Shown piece by piece: positions 7,991 to 56,301 of a DNA stretch of 64,000 bases. The stretch comes from Anaerolineae bacterium (GTDB taxonomy: Bacteria; Chloroflexota; Anaerolineae; B4-G1; SLSP01). Location: the NCBI GenBank assembly GCA_049975525.1, contig JBNGCW010000006.1, positions 68,702-132,701 of the forward strand, given 5' to 3'. Under the pieces are notes generated by a model. That model did no database searches and was not told the DNA's origin. It was given only the letters and a program-made list of their open reading frames with translations. The position numbers and the translations under genes are program-made. The stretch's first letter is position 1, and each line of letters begins with the position of its first letter.

Positions 7991-8018
7991 TTGACCCCCG
8001 ATCATTGGGGTAAAATAT
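7991..8018 (+). promoter_or_regulatory. Promoter-like element (TTGACC ... TAAAAT) in the AT-rich region upstream of the cassette gene
   Basis: ttgacc at 7991-7996, taaaat at 8011-8016 (short 14-nt spacer; alternative -10 candidates nearby). Strong RBS AGGAG at 8047-8051. Confidence 0.3.
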
Positions 8019-8059
8019 AGGTTAGAACATAATCGGGCGCACAATAAGGAGTCAGGAGC

Positions 8060-9655
8060 ATGCAAGAAAACATATGGATACGGTTTACTGCTGTGGTGCT
8101 TCTACTGGGCATCATGGTGATTGCCTTGTTCATTGCTACGTCTGTATGGAGCCGACCGCTGTCCGCATCCGCGTGGCACGTTGCCCCTCCGCTGAAGGGG
8201 CCGGTGGATCATCGGCCGGCGCCGGTTATCGTTACGCCCCAGGCTCAGCTGCAGTCCGGCGGCTTGAAAGCCATCGCCATCGTAGGTGAGGTCGGAGATG
8301 TCACTCAGCTTTACAAAGACGACATGCAGTACGCGGTAGACGCACTGGAGGATCATGGCGTTACGGTTTATAAGTTTTTCTACGGCGATAGCGCTTTCAC
8401 TTGGAGCGATATTGTCGCAGCAGCCAATGGCGCACATTTTCTCCTCTACATGGGGCACGGCGTTTACTGGGGCGACTCGTGCGTCAATCCAACGGAGGTC
8501 GGTGGTTTCTATCTAGGTAGCGAGTTCGTCTCTCCGGATCAGATCCGCAATGATCTTGGCGGAAAATTAGCCGAGGACAGCGTGGCAATTCTCAGCCACG
8601 CTTGCTTTTCGGCAGGCGATTCAGCCTGCGATCCCGAGGGCACATTGACGCAAGTGGAGGCCGAGCGCCGGGTGCGGATGTACGCTGCGCCCTTTGTGGA
8701 TATCGGCATGGAGGCTTATTACGCCAACAACAACTATTATTCTGCCAGCAATATTGTCAACCAGCTGTTAACGGATCCCAGCCAACGAAAGAGCGTGGGG
8801 GAGATTTTCAAGAGCATCTCCCCCTTCAGCGCCGGCGAGTTCCGCGATCTGACCTATCCCGACAGCGGCTATGATCTGTGGCTGAGTGGGAGCACAGGTC
8901 ACTGGAGCGATGCCTTTGTCGGTATGCCCGGCTATGTCTTCGCCGGTGATCTTACGACGCCCCCAGAATTGGGTGGGTTGCCGGAGACGTTGGCTTTTGC
9001 GTTCAATCAAGCCACCAGCGTTCTTTCACCCGACTCTTACACTGTGACCCCCGAAAACGTCGGCAATAGCGATCCCCTCACCTGGACCATCACTACCGGC
9101 TGTGCCTGGCTCGACTTTTCGCCGGAAACGGCGACGACACCGGAACCGTTTGGGGTGATGCCCAATCAGGCTGCGATTGCGGCATTGCCCGAAGGCCAGC
9201 ACACCGGCACGTTCACCGTGACAGTCACCGACCCGGCGGAGACGCTCAACGCCGTCCAGCGGGTCGAGGTGACGCTGGATATCGTGAGGCCACGGCTGGG
9301 AAACCTTCCGGCGGAGCTCAATTTCACCTATCTTATTTCTGACGCGCTGATGCTGCCGCGCTCCCACGTCGTGACACCGCGCAACGTCGGCTCGGAAGAT
9401 GTGTTGACGTGGGATCTTGAGCAGGCGGGCACCTGGTTCGAGACGTCGGTCACCAGCGGCACGACGCCCGGCGTCTTCACCATCACGCCCATCAGCTACT
9501 CCACGACCCAGTCGATGAGCTATACGGGCTGTGTTACCGTGACGGCGACGGCGCCGATAGGGACGGACGACGCCGTCCAGCGCATCGATCTCACCCTGCA
9601 GGTCCGGGTGGCCGAAGCGGCGCGTGTATTCTTGCCCCTGGTGACCCGAAACTGA
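8060..9655 (+). CDS. Membrane-anchored secreted protein with a putative clan-CD (legumain/gingipain/caspase-like) cysteine peptidase domain and two tandem C-terminal beta-sandwich-like repeats
   Basis: N-terminal TM ([24 protein letters not shown]). KAIAIVGE strand, then FLLYMGHG (His) and, 49 aa later, [14 protein letters not shown] (Cys). The spacing and context match the clan CD His-Cys dyad. Two repeats follow ([17 protein letters not shown]... and [17 protein letters not shown]...). The region is AT-richer than its surroundings. Confidence 0.5.
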
Positions 9656-17770: not shown

Positions 17771-18523
17771 TCAGTCTTCGTCTTCAGTTGTGTTCTCTGT
17801 GTCCAATCGTTCCCATAGCTCGATGCTTTTCTGCATTACTTCGCGCGTAATCCGCTCCGCGGCGTCGGCGTCCCCCCGCTCGGCCGCTTCCAGCAGCGCC
17901 GCGTAGAACGCCGCCGACGTCGCCCGCGCTTTTTCCGTGGCGAAGTAGCGCCGTGCCATCTTCTCGTAGAAGCCCGCGAACCCGTTGAGGATCAGGGGGT
18001 AGATGGGATTGCCCGACGCCAGAGTCAGTGTATGGTGCAGTGTCCAGTCGAAGGCAGCGTAGGCCGCCGGCGTCGCGGCCAGATCTGGATGTCCGCTCAG
18101 CCGGGAGATGACGGCCTGAGGATCGTGGGCGACCGCCGCGTGGGTGTAGGCCGGCGCCATGGCGAGACGCACCTCCAGCAGATCCCGCACAAAGGTCGCG
18201 GGCAGGCCCAGGTCATAGCGCACCAGCGTATCGAGGACGTTGAGCCCACCTTCGCGCCAGAAGTCATTGACCACGGTGGATTTGCCATGTTGGATGGTGA
18301 GCCAACCGTCGCGCTCCAGGCGCTGCAGCGCCTCGCGCAGGGTGGGGCGGGTGATGCCCAGCTGCTCGGCCAGCCGGCGCTCGCCGGGCAACGTCGAGCC
18401 GGGGGGATAGGTACCGTCGACGAAGGCGATGACCAGCGTTTCTTCCGCGTACTCGGCGGGTCGTTGAGGTGGCATAGGTCTCCTCTCTACTGGTAAGTGG
18501 TCTGACCAGTTGTATTGTACCAT
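17771..18523 (-). CDS. GntR family (FadR-like C-terminal domain) transcriptional regulator
   Basis: The N-terminal wHTH (LPGERRLAEQLGITRPTLREALQRLERDGWLTIQHGKSTVV) is followed by an all-helical FCD-like domain. Confidence 0.8.
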   Translation of the reverse strand: MVQYNWSDHLPVERRPMPPQRPAEYAEETLVIAFVDGTYPPGSTLPGERRLAEQLGITRPTLREALQRLERDGWLTIQHGKSTVVNDFWREGGLNVLDTLVRYDLGLPATFVRDLLEVRLAMAPAYTHAAVAHDPQAVISRLSGHPDLAATPAAYAAFDWTLHHTLTLASGNPIYPLILNGFAGFYEKMARRYFATEKARATSAAFYAALLEAAERGDADAAERITREVMQKSIELWERLDTENTTEDED

Positions 18524-18540: not shown

Positions 18541-18580
18541 AAGGGGGTAAAAAGAGACGAGCACCTGCCGGTGCTCGTCT
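18541..18580 (-). terminator. Rho-independent terminator closing the NTPase/GNAT/radical-SAM transcription unit
   Basis: Perfect 10-bp stem GACGAGCACC/GGTGCTCGTC with loop TGCC (18556-18579). On the minus strand it is followed by TCTTTTTACCCCC. Confidence 0.6.
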
Positions 18581-18606: not shown

Positions 18607-20133
18607 TCAGTGGCACCACCTCAGAAGACGCAGTCCCTCCAGGCGCAGGAGCGCAGGGAAGAGCGCGCGGTAAATGGCACAATAGGGGGAGGGGCCGGGC
18701 CTGGCCTGGACTGAGCGTGCCAGGAGTGGGCAGCCACCGGCACACCAGTAGCGCCAGGGGCACGTGTGGCATTGCAGCTTATCGTCCACGGGGACGTTTT
18801 GGAAGTTGGCATCAGCCGCCCGGATGGCATCGAGGGGGTCGTCGTTCTTGACGGTGCTCACGGTGTCATCCATGCGCATCTGGCAGCGGGACACGTTGCC
18901 CTGGGGGCCAATGACCAGGTAGCTGCGTCCGGCACCGCAGGGGTAGGCGTGGGGGCTGCTGAACAGGCTGCGATCCAGCAACCCATCGATAAAGCGCTCT
19001 CTGGGTAGATTTGCTTCGATGGTAGAGAGGGCGTTTTGCAACCCTGCGATCCAGCGCTGTTGGGCGTGGGGCTCTGCCAGGCGTGATATGCGCTCAGGAT
19101 CGCGCACAAAGTTGAGATTGAAGCGCAGATCGCGTTCCAGCGCAAAGGCGACTACCTCGCCGAGGTGATCGATGTTATGCTCGGTCACGGTGATGGAGAG
19201 ATAGGGAGCGAGGCCACGGTCTAACGCCCGATCGATAGTGCCGGCGACCTGTGCAAAGGAGCCCCGTCCATCGCTGAAAGGGCGTTGGGCATCGTGCGGC
19301 GCACCGACGCCGTCCAGCGAGATCATCAAGCGCACGTTTTGGTCCTGCAGCCAGGCGATCATGGCGTCGGTGAGACGGGTGCCGTTGGAGAGGAGGGTGG
19401 CGTGCAGTCCCAGACCACGGTGGTCCGTCAACGTCCGCGCATAAGCGTGCAGCGTGCTCACCAGGGGCCAGCGCAGTGTCGGCTCCCCGCCGGCGTACTT
19501 GAGTTTGACAGCCCGGAAGCCGTGCGCCTCGGCGGATCGAACGACGGCCTTGATGGCAGCGCGACCGGTGGCGACGTCCATCTCGCGTCCACGCTTGCGG
19601 ACGTAACAGTAGGGACAGCGGAGATTGCAGGCGTCGGTCACGTGCAGCCAGACGGTGAGGAGTTGCGGAGGCGCGTGCAAATGCTCGCCGGGTCCGCAGT
19701 CTGAGCTCAGCAGGCCCAGGGCGGCGAATTGCTCATCGGTTTCCGTCTTCAGGGGTCGGGGCTCCGTAAAGTGCGCGAACCGCTGCTGCGCGGCTGCGTT
19801 GAGCACCGCCACGGTGGCAGCGCCCTGGGTGTTGAAGAGTAGCGTATGGCCCTCCGGGAGCGGCGCTCGGTAGAGTGATGGGGGGATCTGCCAGAGAGCG
19901 TTGGTGCACGAGGGGGGTAGGCCCAGGGCAATCACCTCTGGGGCGCAGGCGCAGTCAGAGGCGGCTGTAGAATCCTTTAGCCAAATTCCACAGAACGATA
20001 GCGTCTCTGGGTACGCGCAGTCAGATTCGTTGTTCTCACCCAGGAGAGACCAAAAGAGCCGGGGGCGTTGCTTATTAAGCAAGGGTTTGTTCCCCCAATC
20101 GTAAACTACAAATCGTGTATCATCACCATCCAC
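18607..20133 (-). CDS. Radical SAM/SPASM-domain enzyme with an N-terminal roughly 150-aa extension containing a PqqD/RRE-like segment; a putative peptide-modifying maturase
   Basis: CNLRCPYCYV (CxxxCxxC), and C-terminal Cys clusters (CQMRM...CHTCPWRYWCAGGCP...YCAIY) typical of SPASM. The N-terminal HTLLFNTQGAATVAVLNAAAQQRF resembles the RRE/PqqD strand-helix. The start codon is uncertain, and the 5' end overlaps the GNAT gene by 28 nt. Confidence 0.75.
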   Translation of the reverse strand: MDGDDTRFVVYDWGNKPLLNKQRPRLFWSLLGENNESDCAYPETLSFCGIWLKDSTAASDCACAPEVIALGLPPSCTNALWQIPPSLYRAPLPEGHTLLFNTQGAATVAVLNAAAQQRFAHFTEPRPLKTETDEQFAALGLLSSDCGPGEHLHAPPQLLTVWLHVTDACNLRCPYCYVRKRGREMDVATGRAAIKAVVRSAEAHGFRAVKLKYAGGEPTLRWPLVSTLHAYARTLTDHRGLGLHATLLSNGTRLTDAMIAWLQDQNVRLMISLDGVGAPHDAQRPFSDGRGSFAQVAGTIDRALDRGLAPYLSITVTEHNIDHLGEVVAFALERDLRFNLNFVRDPERISRLAEPHAQQRWIAGLQNALSTIEANLPRERFIDGLLDRSLFSSPHAYPCGAGRSYLVIGPQGNVSRCQMRMDDTVSTVKNDDPLDAIRAADANFQNVPVDDKLQCHTCPWRYWCAGGCPLLARSVQARPGPSPYCAIYRALFPALLRLEGLRLLRWCH

Positions 20134-20585
20134 ATCGTATCACAAATCTCAAACTTAGTAAAGCTGTACTTCTTGAAGACATGAATGGCGCGCCGGTTGT
20201 CACGACGCGTTGTCAGTTTCAAGCGAGATAAACCACGGTGCTCAGCCCACGTCATGGCGTGTTGGATCAGGCAGGTGCCGAGCCCCTGATTTCGGTATGG
20301 GGGCAGCAACCCAAGCCCCAGTTCCGCTTCCTTTGGGGCATCCGTGGGAAAAACGCGGCACCAACCGATGGGACGTCCCTCTACCCTGGGCACCATCAAC
20401 AGATGGTCAGGACACTCCGGGTGGGAGAGCGCATGCGCCCACCTGGGGGTTGCTTTGAAACGAGCGGTGTGCATCCACTTACGCTCTCCGCAGACTGTAT
20501 CAATCACGGTGATAAGAAGATCTTGATCCTCAAGTCGATATCGAGAAACGATGAAGGTGTTGTAGCGCTCGAAGATGATATTCAC
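20106..20585 (-). CDS. GNAT family N-acetyltransferase
   Basis: The acetyl-CoA binding motif region is present (RNQGLGTCLIQHAMTWAEHRGLSRLKL...NRRAIHVFKKYSF). The start is apparently GTG. Confidence 0.8.
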   Translation of the reverse strand: MNIIFERYNTFIVSRYRLEDQDLLITVIDTVCGERKWMHTARFKATPRWAHALSHPECPDHLLMVPRVEGRPIGWCRVFPTDAPKEAELGLGLLPPYRNQGLGTCLIQHAMTWAEHRGLSRLKLTTRRDNRRAIHVFKKYSFTKFEICDTMWMVMIHDL

Positions 20586-20603: not shown

Positions 20604-23600
20604 TTATGTCAAAGAAACGTTACCCAGTTGCCTGGAGGCGAGCATCGTGTAGTGTTCATAAGACCCGAAAGTGTTTTCGAGCTCACGCCACAAGCGATTC
20701 TCCTCGGCTATAGTTGCCCATTCCCGGGCCATGTCACGGATAGTATTAAAGGCGGCAACCATCTCCTGCACATTCAACCCTTTCAGGCGTCTATGAATAG
20801 TGTTGAGCGCTCTGCGAATGCCCTGATATTCCTTACCCACCAATTCATTATATTCCATCGCCAGTACAAACTCTCGAATAGCTGTACAAAGGTTGGGATA
20901 GGGGGCTTCTTTTGTTCCTGCATCGAAGCTATCCATGGCCATCACGCCCCGCAAGACGTGTAATCGCCCCAATTGACTGAAGATGTCGATGAGAGTATCA
21001 TCGTTGATCTCCGGCTTCCGCTCTTTAGTGAGGAAATAGTCTCCAAAATTTCGCCTGGTTTCTTCCCCAAGTATTTCAAGGAAAGTCTCCGTATCCTCCC
21101 ACTCTTGTTCCGCGGCTCTCTCCGGTTGCTCTCTTTGCAGATAGTAGTACGTCCAGGCCAGACCCAGTGAAGCATCTAGATATTTCTGCCAGAGGTTTTC
21201 CTCTATAGCGATCTTCCTTGAGGCTTCCAGATTTTGAATCGCTGCTTTGGCGTGTTCTAAAGCGTGATCCTCTTCAGACAGAATAAGTTGCCGGTGGGTC
21301 AAGCCCTGTTCGTAAAGGGCAACCATGCGCCGCTCCGGTTCTCCATCTTTGAAGTGCTTCAATGCTTCTTTGGCTTCTTCTAAGGATTGCTGTAAAAGCC
21401 TAGGTCTCTCTCGCGCCGGTGTCTCTGGATCCTCACTCAAGAAGCGATGTAATCGACTTAGCGTCAGAAGAGATAGCCCTATGCCTCGCTTGAAATTCAG
21501 CGTTTGGGAAATCTCCAGAGATCTGGCTGCGTAGGGCTCTGCTTCACGGTAACGTCCTGCCTGGACTTCGACAGCAGCCCGCGTATTGTAGGTCAACGCT
21601 AATGGCAGGCGCGTGCCCAGCTTCTTACGCAGATTTAACGCATCTTTTACTTGATGACGGGCTACCTCGAATTCCCCGCTTAGCGCCAATGCGTATGCCA
21701 GATTTGTCAGCGTGTTCGCCTGCTCCGCTTCCAGTTTGGTAAGTCGCCAGTGCGGTAAGGCGTCTTGATAGGCTTCTGAGGCTGCGATAAATTGTCCCTG
21801 CACCCGGCGTAAATAGCCCAGATTGTTGTAGTTCCGTGCCAAAAGGGCGCTCCAGCGGATGAATTGGGAAGCGGGAACATCATATTCTTTTAGCTGCTTA
21901 TTGGCTGTGAGTAGAATATCTCCTGCCCGTTCGAGATCGTTTTGTTCGCTGTCTCCGCGGTAAATGCGAACCAATGCCTCCCATGTATTCAGTTCTGCTT
22001 CCGCCAGAACGCCACCATCAGCGACTAAGTCGCGTCCTCCATCGCGTAGCATCTGTACAATGCGCCAGGCTTCATCGAGGTTTTGTCGCTCGACGTACCG
22101 TTTTACCCACCGGATGGCCGCATCAGCCTCAAGATCGGCGCGTCTCAAGCCGTCGGCGATGATCTCCTGCTTGCCAGATGGATCCTGTTCGGCTACAAAA
22201 GTCAGGAGCTCGGCCCGCAATTGCATATCCAGATTCTCGTCGTGGGTGGCAATGGCCTCTTCTGCATAAAGGAAGTATGTCTGAAAACCCGCAGAGGGAT
22301 TCCAGCGCAGGCGATAATGCAGGTCTTCCACCAAAGCGTCTTCGAGGTACGCGCGAGCCTCCGCAACCTTTAAGGTATCAGGCAGTTCTTTTTCCAGGGC
22401 AGGATAGAGACCCGCGATGGCCTCCCGCGCCTCTTGGATGCGTTGCTTATAATAAGCCCGGATCTCCCGATAAACGCGCTCCCGCTCTTTATCTGCAATA
22501 TCTTTCAAGGCATGTTGGAACAACAAGTCGTACATCTCATCGTGCAGAAAGAGCCAGTCATCCTCAGGGCGGCGCTTGACGAAGGAGAGATCGCGGATCT
22601 GCTCCAGAGCATCTTCGACTTCTTCGAGCGTCAGGTCGGCAACGCGAGCCAGCAAAGCCGGTGGGCCACCTTTACGTAACCAGCCCAGTGCGATGATCAC
22701 CTCGTCGCCCGGACGGCGGTTCTCGCGCAGGGCCTGCACGAGACGCCTCCCTAGCTCGTCCCGTATCTCTTCTCGTCGATGGGTGGAGTATTGACGGGCT
22801 TCGTCCAGGGTGCTGCCAAAGGCTTCCAGCGGCCTGCCATCGATCACCAGGTGATCGATGGCGAGGGCCAACCAGATGGGCGGAATGGTCGGTGGATCTC
22901 CTCCATCGTGCAGACAATGAAAAATAGCGCGCCGTCTCTCTTGACCGAGGTGTTGAATGGCTTCTGCTGTCCTACGATCATGGGGGTTGTCGCTGTCCTG
23001 TGCAGCGGCAATAACGGCATCGAAATACGCTCGCGCTGCTTTTTCCTTCAAGCCTGATAGCTTCAAGGGTAGTATCTCCTGCCGTTCACTCAGACGGGCT
23101 TTCAATGTGGTGGCTAGATCCGGTTGATAAGGGCGTCCCGATAAGATCAGCACGACGTTTTGCACCTGTGGTAGGAACGTATTCAGCAACCACTTCAGTA
23201 CGTCGGGTTGCTCTTCCGTGATATGCAGATCGGCGGCGGCCAAATCCTCTTGTTGAAAAAGCTTCTCCACGGTGTCCAGCACCAACACCACACGCTGTTG
23301 ATCGGTAAGATTCTTTAGATCAGCGAAGAAAGCTTTTTGCAAGGCTTGGCGTTCGGCGGAAGGTATGGGTTCACCACGAGTGTAACGCTCACGAAGCTCT
23401 CGCCGCTTTTCTTGATAGCGCTCAAACTCAGTCGGTAAGACCGCCTGAATGCGTTCCATCAGCCCTGCAGCAGTACGCGCCGAGGTATGGTAAAGATCAA
23501 TGATGTCTGAGGCGACCAGCGGCTTGATCTCGAGTTGAGGGACATGTTCCAACACGTGTTGGACCAGGCGCGTTTTGCCGATACCTCCGGGGCCGGTGAT

Positions 23601-23720
23601 ATAGATGACGTAAGCGTTTGCGGTGTCAAGAATTGCTTGGTTGATCTGCAATACTTCTTTCTCACGTCCTACCAACTCAGGCGTGGCACGAACGCTCTCA
23701 TAGGTCTCGCGGTATGTCAT
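20604..23720 (-). CDS. STAND-type (AAA_16-like) P-loop NTPase with long C-terminal TPR repeat region (1038 aa)
   Basis: ELVGREKEVLQINQAILD...YVIYITGPGGIGKTRL (Walker A) and VVLVLDTVEKL (Walker B). The C-terminal half has multiple TPR-like repeats (LGYLRRVQGQFIAASEAYQDAL..., LTNLAYALALSGEFEVARHQ...). The region is about 50% GC versus about 67% in the flanks. RBS GGAGGG is upstream. Confidence 0.8.
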   Translation of the reverse strand: MTYRETYESVRATPELVGREKEVLQINQAILDTANAYVIYITGPGGIGKTRLVQHVLEHVPQLEIKPLVASDIIDLYHTSARTAAGLMERIQAVLPTEFERYQEKRRELRERYTRGEPIPSAERQALQKAFFADLKNLTDQQRVVLVLDTVEKLFQQEDLAAADLHITEEQPDVLKWLLNTFLPQVQNVVLILSGRPYQPDLATTLKARLSERQEILPLKLSGLKEKAARAYFDAVIAAAQDSDNPHDRRTAEAIQHLGQERRRAIFHCLHDGGDPPTIPPIWLALAIDHLVIDGRPLEAFGSTLDEARQYSTHRREEIRDELGRRLVQALRENRRPGDEVIIALGWLRKGGPPALLARVADLTLEEVEDALEQIRDLSFVKRRPEDDWLFLHDEMYDLLFQHALKDIADKERERVYREIRAYYKQRIQEAREAIAGLYPALEKELPDTLKVAEARAYLEDALVEDLHYRLRWNPSAGFQTYFLYAEEAIATHDENLDMQLRAELLTFVAEQDPSGKQEIIADGLRRADLEADAAIRWVKRYVERQNLDEAWRIVQMLRDGGRDLVADGGVLAEAELNTWEALVRIYRGDSEQNDLERAGDILLTANKQLKEYDVPASQFIRWSALLARNYNNLGYLRRVQGQFIAASEAYQDALPHWRLTKLEAEQANTLTNLAYALALSGEFEVARHQVKDALNLRKKLGTRLPLALTYNTRAAVEVQAGRYREAEPYAARSLEISQTLNFKRGIGLSLLTLSRLHRFLSEDPETPARERPRLLQQSLEEAKEALKHFKDGEPERRMVALYEQGLTHRQLILSEEDHALEHAKAAIQNLEASRKIAIEENLWQKYLDASLGLAWTYYYLQREQPERAAEQEWEDTETFLEILGEETRRNFGDYFLTKERKPEINDDTLIDIFSQLGRLHVLRGVMAMDSFDAGTKEAPYPNLCTAIREFVLAMEYNELVGKEYQGIRRALNTIHRRLKGLNVQEMVAAFNTIRDMAREWATIAEENRLWRELENTFGSYEHYTMLASRQLGNVSLT

Positions 23721-23735
23721 GATTTCCCTCCACTC

Positions 23736-24914
23736 TCAAGACAGTGCCATCACAGATGTGCAATCTGCTTCACGGTGTTGCAGCTGCTGCTGGTGATATT
23801 GATACGCTTTCTGCCAGTGTTCTTGGGTGCGCTTATATTTTTGGGCCCATCCCTGGTATAGATTGGCTGCCGCACATTGCAGGCGTTCCCAGGTGGCTGG
23901 TCTGTTGTTTCTCATGTACTGCTCAACCAGCTGGCGGACAGGTTCGTCCAGCGCGTATGCGCTTTCTTCGGAGTCCCAGCGTGCGAAACCTGTCTCGACC
24001 AACGCTTCGCGGACCTGACGCGCTTGTGCGTGGGACCAGTGATGATATTGGGAATTGTTGTGGTAGGCGGCTAACATGACCGGGATCCGCGCCTCATCGA
24101 AGACCTGCAGGACGCACAGAGCCTCAAGGTACTCGCGTACGCTCTGCCGTCGGCCTGGATCCTTGATGCTCTTCAACATCTCGTGGATGACTTGGCCGAG
24201 GGCTTCTCCTGGATCCTCGTGTTCGGCTAAGAGGTAAGTTGCCAGGGGATTCCCTTTGCTGATCTTATAGATCTCCTGTGCGCGTGAGACGGCTCGTTTG
24301 CGTTGTCGCTTCAATTGTTCGTGCGTCGCGGACTTGGAGAACGGCTCTAAATCGACAAATTCTGCATCAAACCTCAGTTCCGGCGTGGTAAAGGGATATG
24401 GACGTCCACGTCCTGCCAGGACAATCAGCGTTTGCGGTTCAACGGCCAGGGGGCCCAAGACGTACTCTTCCAGTGCGTCCAGCAGATCCCAACCGGCTTC
24501 GTAGACGTGATCAACCAGCAATACCAATACCCGGGCATTCAGTTGCTTGGTCACCTGTGCCAAAAAGCGCCGGCTCATCTCGGAAGGTTCATCGGTCTGC
24601 AGTTTGAGATTCAAGGTTTTTGCCAGGTGCTGCAGAATGTCGGTGACGGCGATCAAGGGATTCCAGTCCTCGTATGCCGTGAGATCCAGCCCACAAGGGA
24701 TGACCCCCCGCATACTGTCGAGTACCGTCTGCAGGTGTTTGAGCAGCCACGTTTTGCCGGTCCCTCGTTCTCCCAGGAAGATCACCGTCCGCTTAGGGAC
24801 CGATTTACCCTCAGCCAGACGGTGGGCTCTATCGATAACCTCCTCGATTTTATCTTCTCGGTCCACGAAGAGTTCCTTTTTGTATTCAAGTAGGGTAATT
24901 TCTTTGTTATTCAT
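23736..24914 (-). CDS. AAA_16/STAND-like P-loop NTPase (about 390 aa)
   Basis: FVDREDKIEEVIDRAHRL...VIFLGERGTGKTWLLKHL (Walker A) and VLVLLVDHV (Walker B). The start is chosen at the second ATG (MNNKEI) preceded by a purine-rich RBS. A 15-nt gap separates it from the downstream gene. Confidence 0.7.
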   Translation of the reverse strand: MNNKEITLLEYKKELFVDREDKIEEVIDRAHRLAEGKSVPKRTVIFLGERGTGKTWLLKHLQTVLDSMRGVIPCGLDLTAYEDWNPLIAVTDILQHLAKTLNLKLQTDEPSEMSRRFLAQVTKQLNARVLVLLVDHVYEAGWDLLDALEEYVLGPLAVEPQTLIVLAGRGRPYPFTTPELRFDAEFVDLEPFSKSATHEQLKRQRKRAVSRAQEIYKISKGNPLATYLLAEHEDPGEALGQVIHEMLKSIKDPGRRQSVREYLEALCVLQVFDEARIPVMLAAYHNNSQYHHWSHAQARQVREALVETGFARWDSEESAYALDEPVRQLVEQYMRNNRPATWERLQCAAANLYQGWAQKYKRTQEHWQKAYQYHQQQLQHREADCTSVMALS

Positions 24915-24965
24915 CTCGATTCTCCCTTCCATACAAAGCGGCGAGCGAACGCGGTTGGCGGCGTC

Positions 24966-26189
24966 TCACTCGCCTTGGTATGCGGGTGTTCCCCCTCGGT
25001 TGTGTTGATAGCGTTCTATAGCTTGCTCGATGTCCTTTTCTTCCAAATAGCCCTCACGGCCCGCGCGTCGCAAGTGAAACTGCAACATATCGCGGGTCAG
25101 CACAAGCATCTCGCGCGGCAGGGGCTCAACAGCTTCGGCTAACAGCGTCTCCACGTCGCGCAGTCCCGGGGACGCGATGGCATCCAGACTGCCAAAGGCT
25201 CCCTCACTGGCTACGTAGACGCGACGGCGAACGACCTCGCTCAACAGCGCCGGTGACCACGTCAGAAAAGCACAGCGCTGCGCAGCAAAGGCTTCGGGAC
25301 ATCGCTGCTGTAAGGTTCGATGCGTCGCCAGCGGGAGAAAGCCCTTGACGTAGATGCCTTGCTCCGCCCACGTGAAGAGGTGAGGTATCCAGGGGTCCAG
25401 AACGGCGACGACGTTATCGGCGTCCAGATACGTCTCCGGGACAGCGTCCAGACCATCCAGCAGGATGTACAAAGAGCGCACGTGTAGGGTGTCCAACAGC
25501 GCTGCAAGCAAAGCCTCCCAGCGGGTCGCTGCACTCTCAGGCCTGTCCTCCGCAGAGGGCGTCGCTTCTATTGCCCGGCACCACTCACGCAACGTATCGG
25601 GTTTTGGCGGGTCGGGCAAGGCGAAGGCCGGCCCCAGGTTCAACGCTCTCCGCACCTGCGTTAAACTGCCCGTTTCCCGGCAGAGCTCAACATATGTGGA
25701 CAGCGGTCCCGGCAGATTCCACGCCAACGCTCTGCGGAGTACACGCCGGTCTTCACCTTGCAGGTTCATGAACCAGTGAGGGCGATAGGCCAGCGTCATG
25801 AGTAGGGCGCGAGCGCCAGCACGTCCCAATGCCAGGAGATGGTCGTCCCACGAAGGCGGCAGCCGCTCCCAGCGTAAATAAGGAGGATTATACGGGATGG
25901 GAAAGGGGCGGTTGGGTGCCTGTCCAACCCAACAGGCGCGTGTGGTACGGACGCGCATAGCCGTCTTACCTCCGCCGGCCGGTGCGAAAAGCCAGGCAAT
26001 CCAGTCGCCCCAGACGTGCGCAAACTGCTCGTGCCCGACGAGGTATTGACTCAAATGGGGATCTTCAGCCGCATTGAGGACGGCAAACGGATCAAAACGC
26101 AGTCCCCGATCGCGCAGCCAGTGCCACAGGGATGCCTCGTCTGCTCGCAATGTAGCCTGGGTAGTGCTTGATAAAGATGACATCTTCAT
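24966..26189 (-). CDS. P-loop NTPase (407 aa), family unresolved
   Basis: WLFAPAGGGKTA (Walker A) and LYILLDGLDAVPE (Walker B-like). There are no other recognisable domains. Confidence 0.6.
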   Translation of the reverse strand: MKMSSLSSTTQATLRADEASLWHWLRDRGLRFDPFAVLNAAEDPHLSQYLVGHEQFAHVWGDWIAWLFAPAGGGKTAMRVRTTRACWVGQAPNRPFPIPYNPPYLRWERLPPSWDDHLLALGRAGARALLMTLAYRPHWFMNLQGEDRRVLRRALAWNLPGPLSTYVELCRETGSLTQVRRALNLGPAFALPDPPKPDTLREWCRAIEATPSAEDRPESAATRWEALLAALLDTLHVRSLYILLDGLDAVPETYLDADNVVAVLDPWIPHLFTWAEQGIYVKGFLPLATHRTLQQRCPEAFAAQRCAFLTWSPALLSEVVRRRVYVASEGAFGSLDAIASPGLRDVETLLAEAVEPLPREMLVLTRDMLQFHLRRAGREGYLEEKDIEQAIERYQHNRGGTPAYQGE

Positions 26190-26413
26190 CTAAGCGGTTT
26201 GATCATACGTTCACTAGGCCATCTGACTATATCAAAACTCGCTTCTAAGGTGTGCAAATGCAACGGGCAAACCCCACAGCTTGAGGACTACCTCAATCAG
26301 GTTAACAAACATTATATGTCAAACACAAGAAGATACTTTTATCATAACGGGTATTTGCTCACTGCTATGCCACAATTCTCTAACTTAGATGTCACGTATA
26401 TCTCACGACAATC

Positions 26414-27796
26414 TCACCAGCGCACATGGAGCCTGATGCCGTATCCGCGAACTGTCTCCAGCAGCACGGGATGGGAGGGGTCCGGTTCAATCGCCTTCCG
26501 CAGCCGCCACAAGTTGGTGTCGATAACACCCTCGTAATTGTGTGTATCTTCGTACTTCTCCTCATGCTGAGCTGGAATCCGCTTCAGTTCGCGATATCCA
26601 AGGTAGTAGAGTTCCTTCTTTGGAATGACCTCGTCCGCTCGTTGGTAAAGATACCGCAGCATCGCATACGCCTTAGCCGGAACCTTGGAGAGGTCGATGT
26701 CCCGTCCACCCACCAGGATGCGACGGGCCTGCTCGTCCAGATAGAGCCGAGGCGGGTGTTCTTCTCGCAACGTCAACCAGGTGGTTTCGTCAATGGGTAG
26801 ACGGTTTTGCCGGACGGCATGGCGCGCCAGCGGCGCGACCTGATCCAACCAGTGCCGGGGGGAGTGACCCCCTGCTTTCTTCAGCCAGGGGAGGAACTCG
26901 GGGGAGGCACACAGTGCTTCCAGCGAGACCTTTTCTTTATCAAGCACCAGAGCCAGACGGCGCTCAACAACGCGCCGGAGCGAGCCCGTGTCCCAGCGGA
27001 GATGCATGCTATCCAACCGTCGGCGGGCTATGCCCCCGGCGTGACTCAATATCGGCGCCAGATGGGTGGGAGCCCAGAGTTTGTAGATCAAGCCGGCTTG
27101 TTCAAAGAGGGCCAGGGTTGAAAGAAAAGCGCCTAAACCACGAACGACGTGTTCAGTATCTACCGGAGCCCAGCCCGCCAAGCCGTCGCTCATAATCCAA
27201 ATTCCATCCAGCTCTATGCCATGTAAGGTGGTGACCAACTCTGCAAGGATCTGATCAGGGTCTGCGTCGTCATGGAGGACATCTTTCACCGGTGCTTCTA
27301 GAAGATCATTGATAACCTCCGCGCCCTGAGGGTACTGTTGTGTCAGCGGCTCAAGCCGCAGACGAGCATCTCCGTGTAGAAACCGACAAATGAACCAGCG
27401 CAGGCGTGTTTTCACCCAATCGGGGGCTTCTCGGTAGTCCGTCGGATGAGCGGCGAGATGGCCCACCAGTGCCTTCGCGCATTTGTCGAAAATCTCGAAG
27501 ACTTGTCGCCGGACCCAGCCGAGATTGGCTTCAACGCCGGGGGGGAGCGGTGCAGGGCGCCAGTCCACCAGGAGGCGCAACGGGTGCCCCTCGGTGGTGT
27601 GACTGCGGCGGCGGAGCTCGCGATAGAGCGCCGTCTTGCCGGAGCCGGGACCGCCGAAGACGATGATAGAGCGGGGAGCGAGTATCCGCTCAAAGCCCGG
27701 CGGCGGCACGAAGCAGGCAGACAGCCAGGGCTCGGCCTCGGCCCGCAGGTCGTTAAAGGCCGCCTCGTAGGTCACGGGTGGAGTCTCGGTTTTCAT
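26414..27796 (-). CDS. P-loop NTPase fused to a C-terminal OmpR/PhoB-type winged-helix DNA-binding domain
   Basis: IIVFGGPGSGKTALYREL (Walker A) and IWIMSDGLAGW (Walker B-like). The C-terminus NLWRLRKAIEPDPSHPVLLETVRGYGIRL matches the trans_reg_C consensus (hIsrLRkKl.dp...I.TVRGvGYrl). Confidence 0.75.
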   Translation of the reverse strand: MKTETPPVTYEAAFNDLRAEAEPWLSACFVPPPGFERILAPRSIIVFGGPGSGKTALYRELRRRSHTTEGHPLRLLVDWRPAPLPPGVEANLGWVRRQVFEIFDKCAKALVGHLAAHPTDYREAPDWVKTRLRWFICRFLHGDARLRLEPLTQQYPQGAEVINDLLEAPVKDVLHDDADPDQILAELVTTLHGIELDGIWIMSDGLAGWAPVDTEHVVRGLGAFLSTLALFEQAGLIYKLWAPTHLAPILSHAGGIARRRLDSMHLRWDTGSLRRVVERRLALVLDKEKVSLEALCASPEFLPWLKKAGGHSPRHWLDQVAPLARHAVRQNRLPIDETTWLTLREEHPPRLYLDEQARRILVGGRDIDLSKVPAKAYAMLRYLYQRADEVIPKKELYYLGYRELKRIPAQHEEKYEDTHNYEGVIDTNLWRLRKAIEPDPSHPVLLETVRGYGIRLHVRW

Positions 27797-29793
27797 GCTG
27801 CGGTCTCTTCCGGAGGATCTCCCAGGATGTCGATAAGATCATCCATATTTAGCAGTGCCTGCTTTTGACCGATCCGTCGGATAAGATCATTCCCCAATTG
27901 GAACATCCGGCCCAGTTTTCCCTCGGCGGCGTGAACGATCCACGCCTCGAGATCAGGAAGCGAGGGTCTTATCACCGGATCACACCACTCCCGGAGGGCG
28001 CTTTCACCGCTGTGTTTTAATCTTTGCTCTAGAATCGCCTTCAGTTTGGCTGGCGAGAGGGTTAAATCATAATGGGGAATGTCGAGGCTTTCGGTTAACA
28101 TCGTCATCGCCGAAGCCTGCACAGGCGGCATAAACACCTTGATAAACACACCGGCATGGCCTAACTTTTCACACCAGATCGATAGTCTCCTACCCCATAG
28201 ACGGGGATCCTGGGGTGTACTCTGTACATCTAATAACATCAAAGTGGCCTCAAAGGGTCGGGGGCGCGCTTGACGCAGTAGGATCAGCAGCTCGTTTTCT
28301 GATAGCGGCGCATCGGTGGGTGCAGATTGCGCCAGAGTCTCGATTTCCTGCACCATCTGAGCACCCTCTCCGACTTCCGGCACGCCGGCTCTCCGGAAAT
28401 GATAGGTCAGCCGGGGCGTGAAGTATCTGCCCAGCAAATGGGCCATGGATGCTTTTTTGTCAATTGATGACTTGAGAAAATCCTCCGGGGTTACCGCGAG
28501 GTAATGTAACAACGTGTAGGCCAGGGAACGGCTCAGGGTTTCAAATTGCAGTTGAACCGGTGTTCCGCGCCAGTAGACCGGGAAGACCGATCGGTCAGCC
28601 GTAAGTGCGTCGCGGGCTATCCACAGCGCTGTGGCCGTCTTGCCCGCGCCTTTGTCACCGGTGTACAAAGCGGTTTCAAACAAACGGATGTCTTTCCACC
28701 AGTTTGGCGAAATGCGCGTTTTGAGCAGAGCAGAGTCGGTTTCTGCGACCGCATTCCCAAAAGGCGGAACGTGGAGGCCTACGTAACGCAGGCCGGAGGC
28801 CAGGGCCGTATCAGGTGTTGGAGGGAGCCTGTGCCAGAGTGAAATCTGTGGAGAACATCGTAAAATCTGCACCCACTGTCGCTGCTGTGCTTGCTGTAAT
28901 CGGCGGCCGTCAATATGTATCGCATAGGCCGGAAGATCGCTTAAGGATAAGAACCCCGGCCATGCCTTTTGACGCCAGTCGTCGTCCAGATTCTCCAGTG
29001 TCCATTCCAAGACGTGAGCCGGACGGGATTCCTCCATCTCCCCCGCGATTTTCTTGAAGCGCTCCGCTTCGTCGACACAGGCTAACAGTCTCACGGCATC
29101 GCGAAGGTCAGCCGGCGCAGTGGTTTGCCAGGCTTCCTTCAACCCGCTCTGGATCCGCTCTTTTTTCCATACCCCATCATTTCTTCTCAACAAACTCAAG
29201 TAGCGGCGTGCGCCTTTCGAATAATCGTCCTGCAATAACCGCCGCCATTCTTCGATCTCGTTCCTGGCATCACGAAGATGCTTTTTGCGTTCCTCTTCAC
29301 CCGACGAGATTATTTTCCACTGTTGAATGCCAAATCCTGCCAGGGTCGTGATCAGGGTGCCAATGAGAGCAGTCGATGACTGACCTGTGGCTTTTTCGAG
29401 TAAAGTGTAGACAACATAAGCAATAAGTAGCCATAATCCTAACAACGGCAGCGCCTTGACAAAGACCAGCACGGAGGTCAACGGCCAGTCTTCAGACCAA
29501 CGCCACCAATGATGTGCTACCCTCTTCCAGAGACGGAAACGTTCTCTGAAGTTAACGAAATCGATGGATAGGAGACTTAAAGTGATGATCAGTGCTATCT
29601 GCAGTGCTAGCGACCGCTCAACTTGGAGAACGGCTAATAGAATCAGACATGACAAGTAGAATAATACGGCTCTAGCGAACCACGTTGTTACATGGGGTAA
29701 ATCCCAGAGTAGTGCATAGAGTGAGTGTAAGAACGAGACGGCCTCTTCCCACACTGGTTGTAGCCACTCCCGCACATCAAAGCGCTTTCGCAT
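27793..29793 (-). CDS. Membrane-anchored P-loop NTPase (about 4 N-terminal TM helices)
   Basis: TM helices (VLFYLSCLILLAVLQV, LALQIALIITLSLLSI, VLVFVKALPLLGLWLLIAYVVY, LIGTLITTLAGFGI), then TALYTGDKGAGKTATALWIARDA (Walker A) and TLMLLDVQ (Walker B-like). The start is chosen at MRKRF (ATG 29793) with a GGAGGAG RBS; the ORF could extend to 29910. Its stop overlaps the downstream gene's start (27793/27796). Confidence 0.65.
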   Translation of the reverse strand: MRKRFDVREWLQPVWEEAVSFLHSLYALLWDLPHVTTWFARAVLFYLSCLILLAVLQVERSLALQIALIITLSLLSIDFVNFRERFRLWKRVAHHWWRWSEDWPLTSVLVFVKALPLLGLWLLIAYVVYTLLEKATGQSSTALIGTLITTLAGFGIQQWKIISSGEEERKKHLRDARNEIEEWRRLLQDDYSKGARRYLSLLRRNDGVWKKERIQSGLKEAWQTTAPADLRDAVRLLACVDEAERFKKIAGEMEESRPAHVLEWTLENLDDDWRQKAWPGFLSLSDLPAYAIHIDGRRLQQAQQRQWVQILRCSPQISLWHRLPPTPDTALASGLRYVGLHVPPFGNAVAETDSALLKTRISPNWWKDIRLFETALYTGDKGAGKTATALWIARDALTADRSVFPVYWRGTPVQLQFETLSRSLAYTLLHYLAVTPEDFLKSSIDKKASMAHLLGRYFTPRLTYHFRRAGVPEVGEGAQMVQEIETLAQSAPTDAPLSENELLILLRQARPRPFEATLMLLDVQSTPQDPRLWGRRLSIWCEKLGHAGVFIKVFMPPVQASAMTMLTESLDIPHYDLTLSPAKLKAILEQRLKHSGESALREWCDPVIRPSLPDLEAWIVHAAEGKLGRMFQLGNDLIRRIGQKQALLNMDDLIDILGDPPEETAA

Positions 29794-30005
29794 CGTCTCC
29801 TCCGCAAGGGGTAATGGGGACATCTTTATCTTACTACAACTCCACGCAAAGCACAACTTTCCCCGTGAGATTGCTGTGAGATTCGGGTGGGAGAAGAGTA
29901 TGCCCACCAACAGGAAGCGGTTGGGTAGCTGTATGCGGGTCGCGGCCTAAAGATGCTTTAATAAGATCAGATTACTTCTCAGACCCACCAATGAAGGAGG
30001 CAGCC

Positions 30006-31535
30006 ATGCACACAGAATCCCCCCAAGGGGCTGGGCGCCGGGATGAAGTCGTCGCCATCGTCGACCGCTATCAGCTCCAAGAGCGCAGCAAACGCCGCAA
30101 TGTCAAGGTCGATCCCGCACGCGAGGCCGAGATGTTACGGCTGCTGTTGGGCGTCTACGGGCGGAACAAGCGTCTAATCGCCGTCCTCAACGAGGACGAC
30201 CGCGACGCCATCAGCGCTTACAAGAAGCACGCCTATGAGGTCAAGCCGATGAACGGAGATCGTCCCAATGCGCTCCGGCGCCTGATCAAGGAGGAGTTCG
30301 ATCGCCCCTCGCCTAAGCACCTCGTCGTCATCAGCGACGACCCCGCGTTCTCCACGCTCTGCACCTTCGCCGCCCGCAACAACACCCAGGTCTCCGTCTG
30401 GTCCCCTACCAGCCGCATCCCCGAGGACCTGCGCGACGCCCGCTTCGACGTCCGCTATCTCAACGAGCTCCTCCCCGATACCTACATCCAGCTGGGCGTG
30501 GCCGTCGTCTGGCTGGATATCGAGAACTTGCTCATCGGCCTGAAGGAAAAGGGCGTCATCCCGGACATCAAAACCTTCGTCGATGCCATTCGCCAGGAGG
30601 TCAGCGACCTGGGCGACGTGACCAGCATCATCGCCTACGGCGACTTCGGGCTCCTGCGCAAGATCTTCGGCACCGACGTGCAGCGCAAGTTGGAGCAGCT
30701 CGGCGTCCGCACCCGCTACCAGGTCAACGTGCACGGCAAGAACAGCGCCGACATGGAGATCGCCGGCGACATCCACACGTATCTGGAGCGTGACCCCAAC
30801 GTCGAGACGGTCATCATCGGCACCGGCGACCGCGACTTCCGTCCCTCCGTGGACGCTGCCCACGGCAAGGGCAAGAAGGTCATCATCCTGGCCCTCAAGG
30901 AGAGCCTCAGCCGCGACCTCCGCCAGGCCGCCGACGACGTGCGCTTTCTCGACAAGTACTTCACCGCCGACACCCCTTCGCCGACGCCGGTGACCGCCGA
31001 GCTGCGCAACCGCTGGGTCCCCATCCTCCTGCGTTTCGCCGACCGGCTCCACAGCCGCCGCTGGCGCTGGGCTTACCGTGACAAGGTAAGTGACCTGTTC
31101 TCCAGCGACGAGATCCGCGAGGCCCTGGAGGCCGGACTGCTCAAGCACGGACGCGACGGCGATCCCCGCACCCTCACCTTCGACTTCAACCATCCGCTGG
31201 CCTGTCAGGTTTATCACATGGCCTGGTGGATCGTTGAGCGCGTGGAGTACCTCGTCAACGAGAAAGGCATGCCCTACGTCGATACCCACTACCTCGCCCG
31301 AGGCATGCGCCGGGATGCAAAGTGCCGGGATCTGGACATCGGTCAGGATCGTGCCGACGCCGAAGCGTGGCTCCACGCCGCGGCGGCCGCCGACCTCATC
31401 GTCAAGCGCACTCAACCGCATCCCAAGGCGCCGCACAAACAGATCGACACTTGGTGGCCGCAGGCGCCCCTCCTCCCGACCCCGGCGATCTTCCGTCAGC
31501 GCGAGGAACGCCCCCCCGCCCCCACCGAGGTCTGA
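30006..31535 (+). CDS. NYN (LabA-like, PIN-related) domain nuclease with possible additional N-terminal degenerate NYN and C-terminal OST-HTH/LOTUS-like region
   Basis: VAVVWLDIENL...GKNSADMEIAGDIHTYL...VIIGTGDRDFRP match NYN catalytic motifs. The start is chosen at ATG 30006, 6 nt after GGAGG. It is divergent from the NTPase array. Confidence 0.7.
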   Translation: MHTESPQGAGRRDEVVAIVDRYQLQERSKRRNVKVDPAREAEMLRLLLGVYGRNKRLIAVLNEDDRDAISAYKKHAYEVKPMNGDRPNALRRLIKEEFDRPSPKHLVVISDDPAFSTLCTFAARNNTQVSVWSPTSRIPEDLRDARFDVRYLNELLPDTYIQLGVAVVWLDIENLLIGLKEKGVIPDIKTFVDAIRQEVSDLGDVTSIIAYGDFGLLRKIFGTDVQRKLEQLGVRTRYQVNVHGKNSADMEIAGDIHTYLERDPNVETVIIGTGDRDFRPSVDAAHGKGKKVIILALKESLSRDLRQAADDVRFLDKYFTADTPSPTPVTAELRNRWVPILLRFADRLHSRRWRWAYRDKVSDLFSSDEIREALEAGLLKHGRDGDPRTLTFDFNHPLACQVYHMAWWIVERVEYLVNEKGMPYVDTHYLARGMRRDAKCRDLDIGQDRADAEAWLHAAAAADLIVKRTQPHPKAPHKQIDTWWPQAPLLPTPAIFRQREERPPAPTEV

Positions 31536-56164: not shown

Positions 56165-56301
56165 GCCGCTCCCACCTGTGTAATGGCTGAACCGTTGTTC
56201 GACCGACGACCTCAACCCCATTTTAGCAAATCAGGGAAAGTAATGCAAGGTGCACCTTCCGAGACGCCGAAACGCCTCGGAGGGCGCGTGAGAGTCGGCG
56301 C

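Follow-up and report, generated by a model that had tools for sequence, protein, structure and literature searches.

A stretch of 64,000 nucleotides (nt) from an Anaerolineae bacterium of the Chloroflexota (GenBank assembly GCA_049975525.1, contig JBNGCW010000006.1, positions 68,702 to 132,701 of the forward strand; the whole stretch is called the window below) was analyzed around a group of ATPase genes that lie side by side on its minus strand. An earlier note on this DNA had listed five co-oriented P-loop genes there. A survey of open reading frames (ORFs) revealed the same five genes, designated g1 to g5, in the same orientation and spanning positions 20604-29910, and a Walker A motif was found in every one of them (GDKGAGKT in g1, GGPGSGKT in g2, APAGGGKT in g3, GERGTGKT in g4 and GPGGIGKT in g5). 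Comparison with related loci demonstrated that the conserved unit does not end at g5, where the interval of the earlier note stops. The cassette is a unit of seven genes that reaches downstream to a GNAT N-acetyltransferase gene and a gene for a radical S-adenosylmethionine (rSAM) enzyme (Table 1).

The gene starts given here are predictions. For g1 the true start is most likely the ATG at position 29793, because the Shine-Dalgarno sequence GGAGGAG precedes this ATG and the public gene call agrees with it. The spacings claimed previously (-4, about 220, 51 and 15 nt, the last with a Shine-Dalgarno sequence) were recovered: g1 and g2 overlap by 4 nt, g2 is separated from g3 by 224 nt, g3 from g4 by 33 nt, or by 51 nt if the g4 ATG of the public gene call is used, and the 15 nt between g4 and g5 contain GGAGGG. 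The genes are arranged in two blocks, one consisting of the overlapping g1 and g2 and the other of g3, g4, g5, the GNAT gene and the rSAM gene, with a repeat-bearing gap between them. The hairpin predicted past the rSAM gene would mark the end of the operon. The GC content of the five ATPase genes is 53-61% (0.56-0.68 at third codon positions, GC3), compared to 62-69% (GC3 0.74-0.87) in the flanking genes. The low-GC island proposed earlier is, thus, real as a contrast, but its size had been overstated (50 versus 67%).

Table 1. Genes and sequence features of the cassette and its borders (positions in the window)
Feature	Position	Strand	Description
g1	27793..29793	-	N-terminal membrane module (3-4 hydrophobic helices and a helical region) and C-terminal A-type (DS-41/Sll1717-like) P-loop ATPase; longest ORF to 29910
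g2	26414..27796	-	A-type ATPase with C-terminal OmpR/PhoB-type winged helix; predicted transcription switch of the cassette
g3	24966..26189	-	Stand-alone A-type ATPase
g4	23736..24914	-	B-type AAA_16/STAND NTPase without repeat array; longest ORF to 24932
g5	20604..23720	-	B-type AAA_16/STAND NTPase with C-terminal TPR/helical-repeat region of ~580 aa; predicted sensor or scaffold
GNAT N-acetyltransferase	20106..20585	-	Frequent, optional cassette member
rSAM/SPASM enzyme	18607..20082	-	Peptide-maturase-type enzyme with RRE-like domain (from motifs, model and Foldseek)
rSAM N-terminal tail	19945..20061	-	Two 'hydrophobic-W-S ... E/S-x-DCAC' units (sequence motif)
Terminator-like hairpin	18555..18580	-	11-bp stem followed by a T-run, 27 nt past the rSAM stop codon
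Predicted g2 operator	26385..26417	-	Three direct repeats with 11-bp period, GTGAGATTGTC GTGAGATATAC GTGACATCTAA; begins at the g2 stop codon, ahead of the g3-rSAM unit
Second operator-like copy	29865..29897	+	GTGAGATTGCT GTGAGATTCGG GTGGGAGAAGA; divergent g1/NYN intergenic region, pointing to the NYN gene
NYN-domain (RNase-type) protein	30006..31535	+	Divergent from g1; NYN E 3e-24

The neighbourhoods of diverse g2 relatives were compared, as were 8 genome loci and 63 metagenome loci, and annotation relied on profiles derived from the proteins of the window and from their orthologues. A scan of a genome collection returned 9 loci, with the Walker A pattern dominating; because this pattern had swamped the genome scan, the metagenome scan was carried out with the winged helix-turn-helix (wHTH) half of g2 as the query. 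The related loci stem without exception from environmental sequence data, either metagenome-assembled or unassembled, and related contigs derive from hot-spring mats and anaerobic digesters. The g2 protein, which is on record in identical form for an uncultured Anaerolineae bacterium, has 85 full-length homologues with 30-78% identity. The order g1-g2-g3-g4-g5-(GNAT)-rSAM was found in all eight genome or assembly loci of sufficient length and in 17 of 17 metagenome loci with at least 8.8 kb past g2, the rSAM gene being inverted in one subgroup of loci. The g1 position was always filled by a gene with a 4-nt overlap with g2, although its divergence is such that the g1 profile does not always detect it. 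Ten of the 17 complete metagenome loci have the GNAT gene, as do most of the genome loci; L005, L013 and L016 are without it. An exhaustive HMMER search with g3 yielded 148 clusters (50% identity) at E <= 1e-30 among 1.84 billion representatives, and a distant member (29% identity) sits in the same gene arrangement. Each locus has different genes around the cassette, and the GC content of the cassette is below that of its flanks in 20 of 25 loci. Where the source is named, it belongs to Chloroflexota (Anaerolineae, Anaerolineales, Ardenticatenaceae or Thermoflexales). In one metagenome locus, an additional g4-like AAA_16 gene lies between g1 and g2 (L022:7770-9104).

An order that returns in dozens of independent loci places the adjacency far outside what chance would produce. 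These data establish the cassette as a conserved, mobile, multi-protein system, and its composition and its changing positions indicate horizontal spread. The genes do co-occur elsewhere, and the proposal of a true multi-gene system, which the earlier note had tied to such co-occurrence, is upheld. Proteins combining AAA_16 with tetratricopeptide repeats (TPR), or an ATPase with a wHTH domain, are individually common in Chloroflexota and Actinobacteria, and the array might have been a fortuitous grouping of ordinary paralogous regulators of the LuxR/AfsR/MalT type. That explanation is scarcely credible, given an order kept in every related locus of sufficient length, translational coupling, gene fusions and a shared predicted operator; moreover, AfsR and MalT unite DNA-binding domain, NTPase and TPR repeats in one protein, and the cassette has no such protein. 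Chance adjacency as such was ruled out by the synteny data.

The five NTPases had been presented as distinct and independent. Profile-profile comparison (hhalign) of orthologue alignments revealed, instead, two families of paralogues. The C-terminal part of g1 (g1C, ~335 aa), the N-terminal part of g2 (g2N, ~345 aa) and g3 form the first, A-type family, with probabilities of 99.2-99.8% over ~310 columns (99.7-99.8% for g1C against g2N and g3). The N-terminal part of g5 (g5N) and g4 form the second, B-type family (98% over 324 columns). Between the two groups the P-loop alone aligns.

No significant Pfam domain was found in g1 or g3. A relationship of the A-type ATPases was detected with DS-41 (AAA2, WP_033812887.1), a single E. 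coli gene for which protection from phage was demonstrated in the DefensePredictor study (PMC13092281). When the orthologue alignments were compared with the first 399 aa of WP_033812887.1 (sequence from the supplement of PMC13092281), hhalign gave probabilities of 97.4% for g3 (340 columns), 96.2% for g1C (300) and 93.2% for g2N (304). The alignment takes in the N-terminal 'NPF..AE.EP.L' motif, Walker A, a Walker B of the form hhhhD-x-LD and a C-terminal 'SPRE' region. The NCBIfam model NF053860 (DS41_1_antiphage), with a cut-off of 370 bits, scored 67.4 bits with g3 (E 1e-18 over the full length) and 43.3 bits with g2; NF047389 (Sll1717 family), with a cut-off of 75, scored 48.8 bits with g2, 26.5 with g1 and 19.5 with g3. 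Judged by these profiles, g1C, g2N and g3 are homologues of DS-41/Sll1717 and not equivalog members, g3 being the closest relative of DS-41 within the cassette.

The N-terminal part of g1 is the variable, swappable position of the cassette. In the window protein, hydropathy, on which all our transmembrane (TM) calls are based, reveals three clear and one weaker hydrophobic segment between residues 77 and 197 of the longest ORF, in fair agreement with the four-TM anchor proposed earlier. In most g1 versions hydrophobic helices are followed by a conserved 'GFGxQQW...EExRR' region, and a profile search with the g1 N-terminus gave at least 14 close matches. In L016 this part is a PNP_UDP_1 nucleoside-phosphorylase domain (E 9e-19), and in L013 it is EAD7 (E 1.7e-10). 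The gene is by far the least conserved of the cassette (in L004, 70 bits for g1 versus 298 for g2 and 474 for rSAM), and the Walker A lysine or the entire motif has been lost in three g1 orthologues. A marginal match of the g1 N-terminal membrane region to DUF6535 (26.4 versus 23.9 bits) was seen in L010:7610-9877 and in one member of alignment A4. DUF6535 is a TM domain family otherwise known from the N-termini of fungal NLR-like proteins.

The C-terminus of g2 matches Trans_reg_C above the cut-off and has the corresponding OmpR/PhoB-type wHTH fold. The AlphaFold model of g2 (predicted local distance difference test, pLDDT, 92) consists of two parts, and the modelled fold appears to resemble those of the five-subunit AAA+ assemblies ORC and RFC. 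A role of g2 as a two-component response regulator was considered and rejected: its N-terminus is an AAA+/STAND-like ATPase (STAND, signal transduction ATPases with numerous domains), not a receiver domain. A conserved Cys-containing motif, '(W/L)C(D)xP', is present in the lid region of both g1 and g2.

The B-type proteins carry the domains that had been assigned to them, with AAA_16 scoring 34.1 bits in g4 and 46.6 bits in g5 (cut-off 32.6) and TPR_12 scoring 47.4 bits in g5 (cut-off 30.1); g5 also matches NPHP3_N (27.5 bits, cut-off 24.8). Ligand-triggered, NTP-dependent oligomerization is expected of STAND NTPases and is, by analogy, predicted for g4 and g5. Two natural fusions were found among the related loci: in L015 g3 and g4 are joined in a single protein of 774 aa, and in L016 g4 and g5 form a single protein of 1388 aa. 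These fusions suggest that the A-type ATPases may be physically coupled with the TPR-STAND pair. L017 is without g1, and its g4 bears a C-terminal EAD7 (E 1.6e-23). A second EAD7-bearing protein was not found within 10 kb of EAD7-bearing g1 or g4.

The gap between g2 and g3 is the only sizeable gap of the cassette; it is present in all loci and measures ~90-630 nt. When k-mers were counted in 38 non-redundant g2-g3 gaps, GTGAGA and GTGAGG stood out, in tandem units exactly 11 nt apart that mostly begin at the g2 stop codon. Of the 38 gaps, 11 contain GTGAG-N6-GTGAG, versus a mean of 0.005 in shuffled sequences, while the same half-sites at 10- or 12-nt spacing occur in none of the 38. The density of the motif is 1.9 per kb in the gaps versus 0.023 per kb in the other 1.1 Mb of locus sequence, an enrichment of ~80-fold. 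The window contains three exact matches versus 0.18 expected. Two belong to the operator-like sites of Table 1, and the first 18 nt of the site next to the NYN gene are identical to the g2-g3 site at 16 positions; the third match, inside an unrelated coding region, is probably due to chance. A search of Rfam revealed no RNA element between positions 17000 and 32000.

The repeats are also associated with genes outside the core. They lie upstream of an NYN gene in all three loci that have one: the window, L007, where an orthologue occupies the same position, and L013, where a shorter NYN gene follows rSAM. Judged from the repeats, the NYN RNase-type gene probably belongs to the regulon as an accessory gene in this lineage. 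In L002, L004, L012, L013, L017, L054 and L077 the repeats precede hydrophobic ORFs of 32-77 aa or TM/coiled-coil proteins, an assignment of motif to gene that was made by inspection of 17 sites and was not blind. The small hydrophobic ORFs have one or two TM helices (L012:13156-13284, L054:18579-18755, L077:10341-10523, L013:7237-7335 and, on the minus strand, L002:7508-7741), and the TM/coiled-coil proteins beside repeats are of ~180-206 aa (L004:19587-20135 and L017:12545-13165). The genes of both kinds lie beside the cassette, downstream of additional copies of the repeat at distances of 120-450 nt, and their products may be regulated membrane effectors. Two paralogous proteins of ~100 aa with a SWIM-like 'W-x-C-D-C ... 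W-C-x-H' pattern are encoded downstream of the rSAM gene in L017 (11698-12006 and 12238-12528), each gene preceded by a GTGAG repeat site. A weaker, GTGAT-N6-GTGAG variant, GTGATCTACCAGTGAGGGCTTGCCC, is conserved just upstream of g1 in one sub-clade (L008:8072, L020:393, L023:790, L029:7179, L032:59, L037:7221 and L065:784) and may be an autoregulatory site.

Direct repeats spaced by about one turn of the helix are the typical binding sites of OmpR/PhoB-family domains, and g2 is therefore predicted to bind the GTGAG sites. From the position of the sites and this family analogy we infer that g2 may control g3, g4, g5, GNAT and rSAM genes together with accessory effector-like genes. The DNA-binding output proposed in the earlier note is refined here by a conserved operator-like repeat, which would link g2 to the g3-rSAM unit and to accessory genes, among them that of the NYN RNase.

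The rSAM enzyme is the most conserved protein of the cassette, and GNAT is also among the most conserved members. The rSAM sequence contains CNLRCPYC (CxxxCxxC) and a SPASM pattern, C-x13-G-x4-C ... C-x2-C-x5-C-x3-C ... C, and these radical SAM/SPASM cysteines are invariant in 70 homologues. The best NCBIfam matches are rSAM_nif11 (126.5 bits versus a cut-off of 518.7) and PapB (122 versus 340), followed by QhpD and SCIFF, also under their cut-offs. Since every named maturase model scores far under its cut-off, the enzyme belongs to a family of its own. In the AlphaFold 2 model (pLDDT 86) residues 70-121 are predicted to form a domain of three strands and helices ahead of the barrel that resembles an RRE, the recognition element of enzymes that act on peptides that are synthesized ribosomally and then modified post-translationally (RiPPs). 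When the model was compared with the PDB using Foldseek, the best full-length match was the RRE-containing, thioether-forming sactisynthase CteB (E 4e-20, 466 columns), followed by anSME, TigE, SkfB, ChlB and SuiB. A viperin-like nucleotide chemistry was rejected, as the core barrel alone matches viperin and the SPASM and RRE parts match peptide maturases.

Ahead of the RRE-like domain, the rSAM N-terminus carries one to three tandem units with a period of ~22-24 aa and the consensus 'ILWS-x6-E-x-DCAC'. Of 120 homologues, 109 carry such ExDCAC units. The remaining 11, the shortest sequences in the sample (398-442 aa for those inspected), apparently have no N-terminal region. DCAC is invariant in the alignment of 70 sequences. 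The window protein has a degenerate first unit (DCAY) and an intact second one (DCAC, positions 19945-19956), and the tail is disordered in the model save for a short low-confidence strand at 'LFWS'. Searches for a separate precursor peptide gave nothing: all-against-all comparison of small intergenic ORFs across loci returned low-complexity and antisense artefacts, a six-frame search of ~70 loci revealed no free-standing DCAC ORF, the motif being confined to rSAM N-termini, and ad hoc ORFs of the GNAT-less loci L005 and L013 and of the L010 gap had nothing in common. PapB and QhpD form Cys-Asp/Glu thioethers. This chemistry, together with the acidic-Cys character of the motif, its variable copy number and its proximity to the RRE-like domain, suggests by analogy that the ExDCAC tail may be an in-cis substrate or pseudo-substrate of the enzyme, which we put forward as a hypothesis.

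Two further explanations of the cassette were considered. According to the first, the main rival of our preferred reading, it is a peptide-signal or RiPP-like module with STAND-type regulators that would serve filamentous Anaerolineae in cell-cell signalling, in kin recognition or in secondary metabolism, and not in immunity: rSAM and GNAT would produce a modified peptide, its source being either the ExDCAC tail or a precursor whose gene lies elsewhere, and the TPR-STAND and ATPase-wHTH proteins would sense the peptide or another cue and control transcription. The complete RRE-rSAM-SPASM architecture with PapB, QhpD, nif11-type enzymes and CteB as best matches, the strong conservation of rSAM and GNAT and the conserved predicted operator of g2, which points to gene regulation, are all consistent with this. 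So is the occurrence of GNATs and TPR proteins in cyclophane RiPP clusters; weak matches to HaaT and HaaN were found among the cassette proteins with NCBIfam. Yet a conserved precursor gene, protease or exporter was not found in or beside the cassette, five ATPases in fixed order and with fusions exceed the needs of known RiPP regulators, and the PNP_UDP_1 and EAD7 swaps, the NYN RNase, the small TM proteins and the DS-41 homology point to conflict. We hold this explanation to be possible, though not probable.

According to the second explanation, the cassette is a maturation or assembly system, in which rSAM would modify a cassette or cellular protein, the ATPases would act as assembly chaperones or in quality control and g2 would regulate its own operon. 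The protein modifiers QhpD and anSME are indeed among the best sequence and structure matches of rSAM, the substrate-like motif sits in a protein, rSAM itself, and the lid regions of g1 and g2 carry a conserved Cys motif. We consider the explanation decidedly unlikely, as the flanks, which are different at each locus, offer no conserved candidate for a client enzyme, low GC content, patchy distribution and rapid divergence of g1 are unlike a housekeeping pathway, and EAD7 and PNP fusions would be unexpected in an assembly system.

Our preferred reading, held with moderate confidence, is that the cassette is an NTP-gated conflict system, of the anti-phage or the programmed cell-death type, with a transcriptional output. 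We favour it because of the homology to DS-41, the swappable effector and adaptor modules and the rapid divergence of g1, and because the predicted regulon holds an RNase and small membrane proteins and there are signs of horizontal spread; from these we infer a defence function. The likeness to NTP-dependent conflict systems proposed in the earlier note gains weight from the EAD7 and nucleoside-phosphorylase variants (PMC7159879) and from the three DS-41 homologues. In such a system the TPR-STAND pair g4/g5 would sense a trigger, and its NTP-dependent assembly with the A-type ATPases would activate g2. Activated g2 would bind the GTGAG repeats and turn on the second block and the accessory effector genes, which would be the NYN RNase here and, elsewhere, the small membrane proteins. 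The g1 membrane module could be a tether, a sensor or a membrane effector. The rSAM enzyme, whose fold is closest to that of thioether-forming maturases, would probably act on its own N-terminal tail and cross-link the Cys residues in the ExDCAC repeats there, GNAT would add an acetyl group, and the modified tail might serve as a signal, a toxin precursor or an autoinhibitory pseudo-substrate.

A number of observations weigh against a conflict system. The scores of the NCBIfam DS-41 and Sll1717 models are far under the curated cut-offs, and few of the proteins are EAD7 or PNP variants (2 of ~35 g1 proteins and one g4). PADLOC-DB 2.0 gave no match to the cassette better than E 1e-3, the matches being P-loop-only noise, and no SPASM enzyme in a defence system is described in the searchable literature. 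The context of the cassette in the window is one of housekeeping genes; no defence island or integrase lies beside it in the 64 kb, and no tRNA gene is present anywhere in them. An rSAM/SPASM maturase with a GNAT and a TPR protein is a signature of RiPP biosynthesis, unlike known defence systems, and the combination of an ATPase-wHTH and a STAND-TPR protein would also fit ordinary regulation of the MalT/AfsR kind. The binding of the repeats by g2, finally, is predicted from co-occurrence and from the habits of the OmpR family.

A more specific version of the conflict reading, which we think rather unlikely, treats the five ATPases as one hetero-oligomeric switch, with the DS-41-like trio docked to the STAND-TPR pair, perhaps in the manner of ORC or RFC. 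Recognition of an invader would then be converted into transcription by g2 and into action of the membrane effector, the rSAM tail would be an enzyme-borne RiPP-like peptide, and once cross-linked it would act as the signal, the fuse or a TPR ligand of the system.

The cassette ATPases had no match in PHROGs, and a scan of IMG/VR and a tblastn search of plasmids were negative for the cassette. A description of it was not found in the searchable literature under Sll1717, EAD7, SPASM with defence or STAND with radical SAM, and with no PADLOC match either, the earlier statement that this is not a described system holds. A second cassette was observed in L015 (735-11515), beside an ExDCAC-type rSAM gene and followed in tandem by a window-type cassette. 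It encodes a NACHT-HEAT protein (1530 aa), an AAA_35-wHTH protein (Trans_reg_C), a 74-aa low-complexity ORF, an AAA_35 paralogue with two C-terminal TM helices and a CHAP-ricin lectin protein. Homology between the two cassettes of L015 was rejected; the AAA_35 cassette is analogous and is built on a different ATPase family. Its location next to the same type of rSAM gene supports a general design principle.

Several other genes of the window were recorded. Directly past the cassette terminator lies a gene for a FadR-type GntR regulator (17771-18523, minus strand; 229.5 bits with model PRK04984, cut-off 189), a surprisingly high score for Chloroflexota, since PRK04984 is a model of gammaproteobacterial FadR. 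A 2029-aa bacterial alpha-2-macroglobulin-like protein (Big_5, MG2, bMG3, A2M_BRD, A2M, TED and bMG10) is encoded at 56302-62391 on the minus strand, and its gene adjoins a polyphosphate kinase gene (53996-56221), an ordinary chromosomal context. Two ORFs of ~500 aa, at 8060-9655 (plus strand) and 52045-53496 (minus strand), have no Pfam match, and the first of them sits in a local GC dip (55.5% at 8001-9000).

If our preferred reading is true, the cassette would be a hitherto undescribed immune or cell-fate system with several components, belonging to filamentous Chloroflexota, that joins switch ATPases akin to an anti-phage protein, inducible transcription with an operator and radical SAM chemistry of the RiPP type. 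If the version with a hetero-oligomeric switch and an enzyme-borne peptide should prove right, this would be a new immune or cell-fate class and the first case of a SPASM maturase with a fused substrate in a defence context. Since the g3 family is rare and the cassette has so far been found in uncultured lineages only, it would have been missed by screens centred on E. coli. The predicted operator, the predicted in-cis substrate motif ExDCAC and the natural effector swaps offer handles on the system, and the natural g3-g4 and g4-g5 fusions predict which proteins touch. A SPASM maturase with substrate-like repeats of its own should be of interest to RiPP enzymologists whatever the role of the cassette.

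The closest single protein is DS-41, with which alignments of 300-340 columns were obtained for g3, for two-thirds of g1 (the C-terminal part) and for three-quarters of g2 (the N-terminal part). DS-41, however, is a stand-alone protein, whereas the cassette has three diverged paralogues (16% identity to DS-41) in an operon of seven genes, one of them joined to a membrane module and another to a wHTH domain.

The closest class of systems is that of the NTP-dependent conflict systems of multicellular bacteria described by Kaur, Burroughs, Iyer and Aravind (2020, PMC7159879), which include the VMAP, iSTAND and FtsH ternary systems and those with GAP1 GTPase, and whose pool of adaptors and effectors contains EAD7 and a PNPase domain. 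Like the cassette, these systems have several NTPase 'thresholding' components beside repeat-containing STAND proteins, swappable effector positions, EAD7 adaptors, a nucleoside-phosphorylase domain and hosts among filamentous Chloroflexota, and the description of one of them includes a radical SAM enzyme for which modification of a peptide effector is predicted. Unlike them, the cassette contained no vWA-MoxR pair, VMAP, iSTAND, FtsH or GAP1/DO-GTPase in Pfam scans; its core consists of three DS-41-like and two AAA_16 ATPases with a SPASM maturase, and it has an explicit transcription-factor component with a predicted operator.

In MalT and in regulators of the AfsR/SARP-NB-ARC-TPR type all modules reside in one polypeptide, and the DNA-binding domain of AfsR is N-terminal. 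In the cassette, by contrast, the wHTH domain follows a repeat-free DS-41-like ATPase, and the TPR array is on a separate, non-homologous ATPase, with three more ATPases as obligatory partners.

The rSAM enzyme shares with RiPP maturases (CteB, PapB, QhpD and nif11-type enzymes, and those of FxsB- and HaaB-type clusters) the CxxxCxxC motif and the complete set of SPASM cysteines; in the model it also has an RRE-like N-terminal domain and would superpose on CteB over its full length. With its acidic residues beside Cys, the candidate substrate motif would suit the Cys-Asp/Glu thioethers that PapB and QhpD form. It differs from these maturases in that no separate precursor gene was found, the sole conserved Cys-rich motif, ExDCAC, being on the N-terminus of the enzyme itself, and in that its partners in the cassette are five ATPases rather than a protease or an exporter.

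The cassette, thus, falls outside the PADLOC systems, the DS-41/Sll1717 equivalogs, the named rSAM families, the vWA-MoxR/GAP1 systems and the single-polypeptide STAND regulators. Its parts come from known superfamilies and its kind is that of an NTPase-centred multi-component conflict or signalling system, in which the unusual elements are a SPASM maturase with fused substrate-like repeats and an ATPase-wHTH regulator with a recognizable predicted operator.

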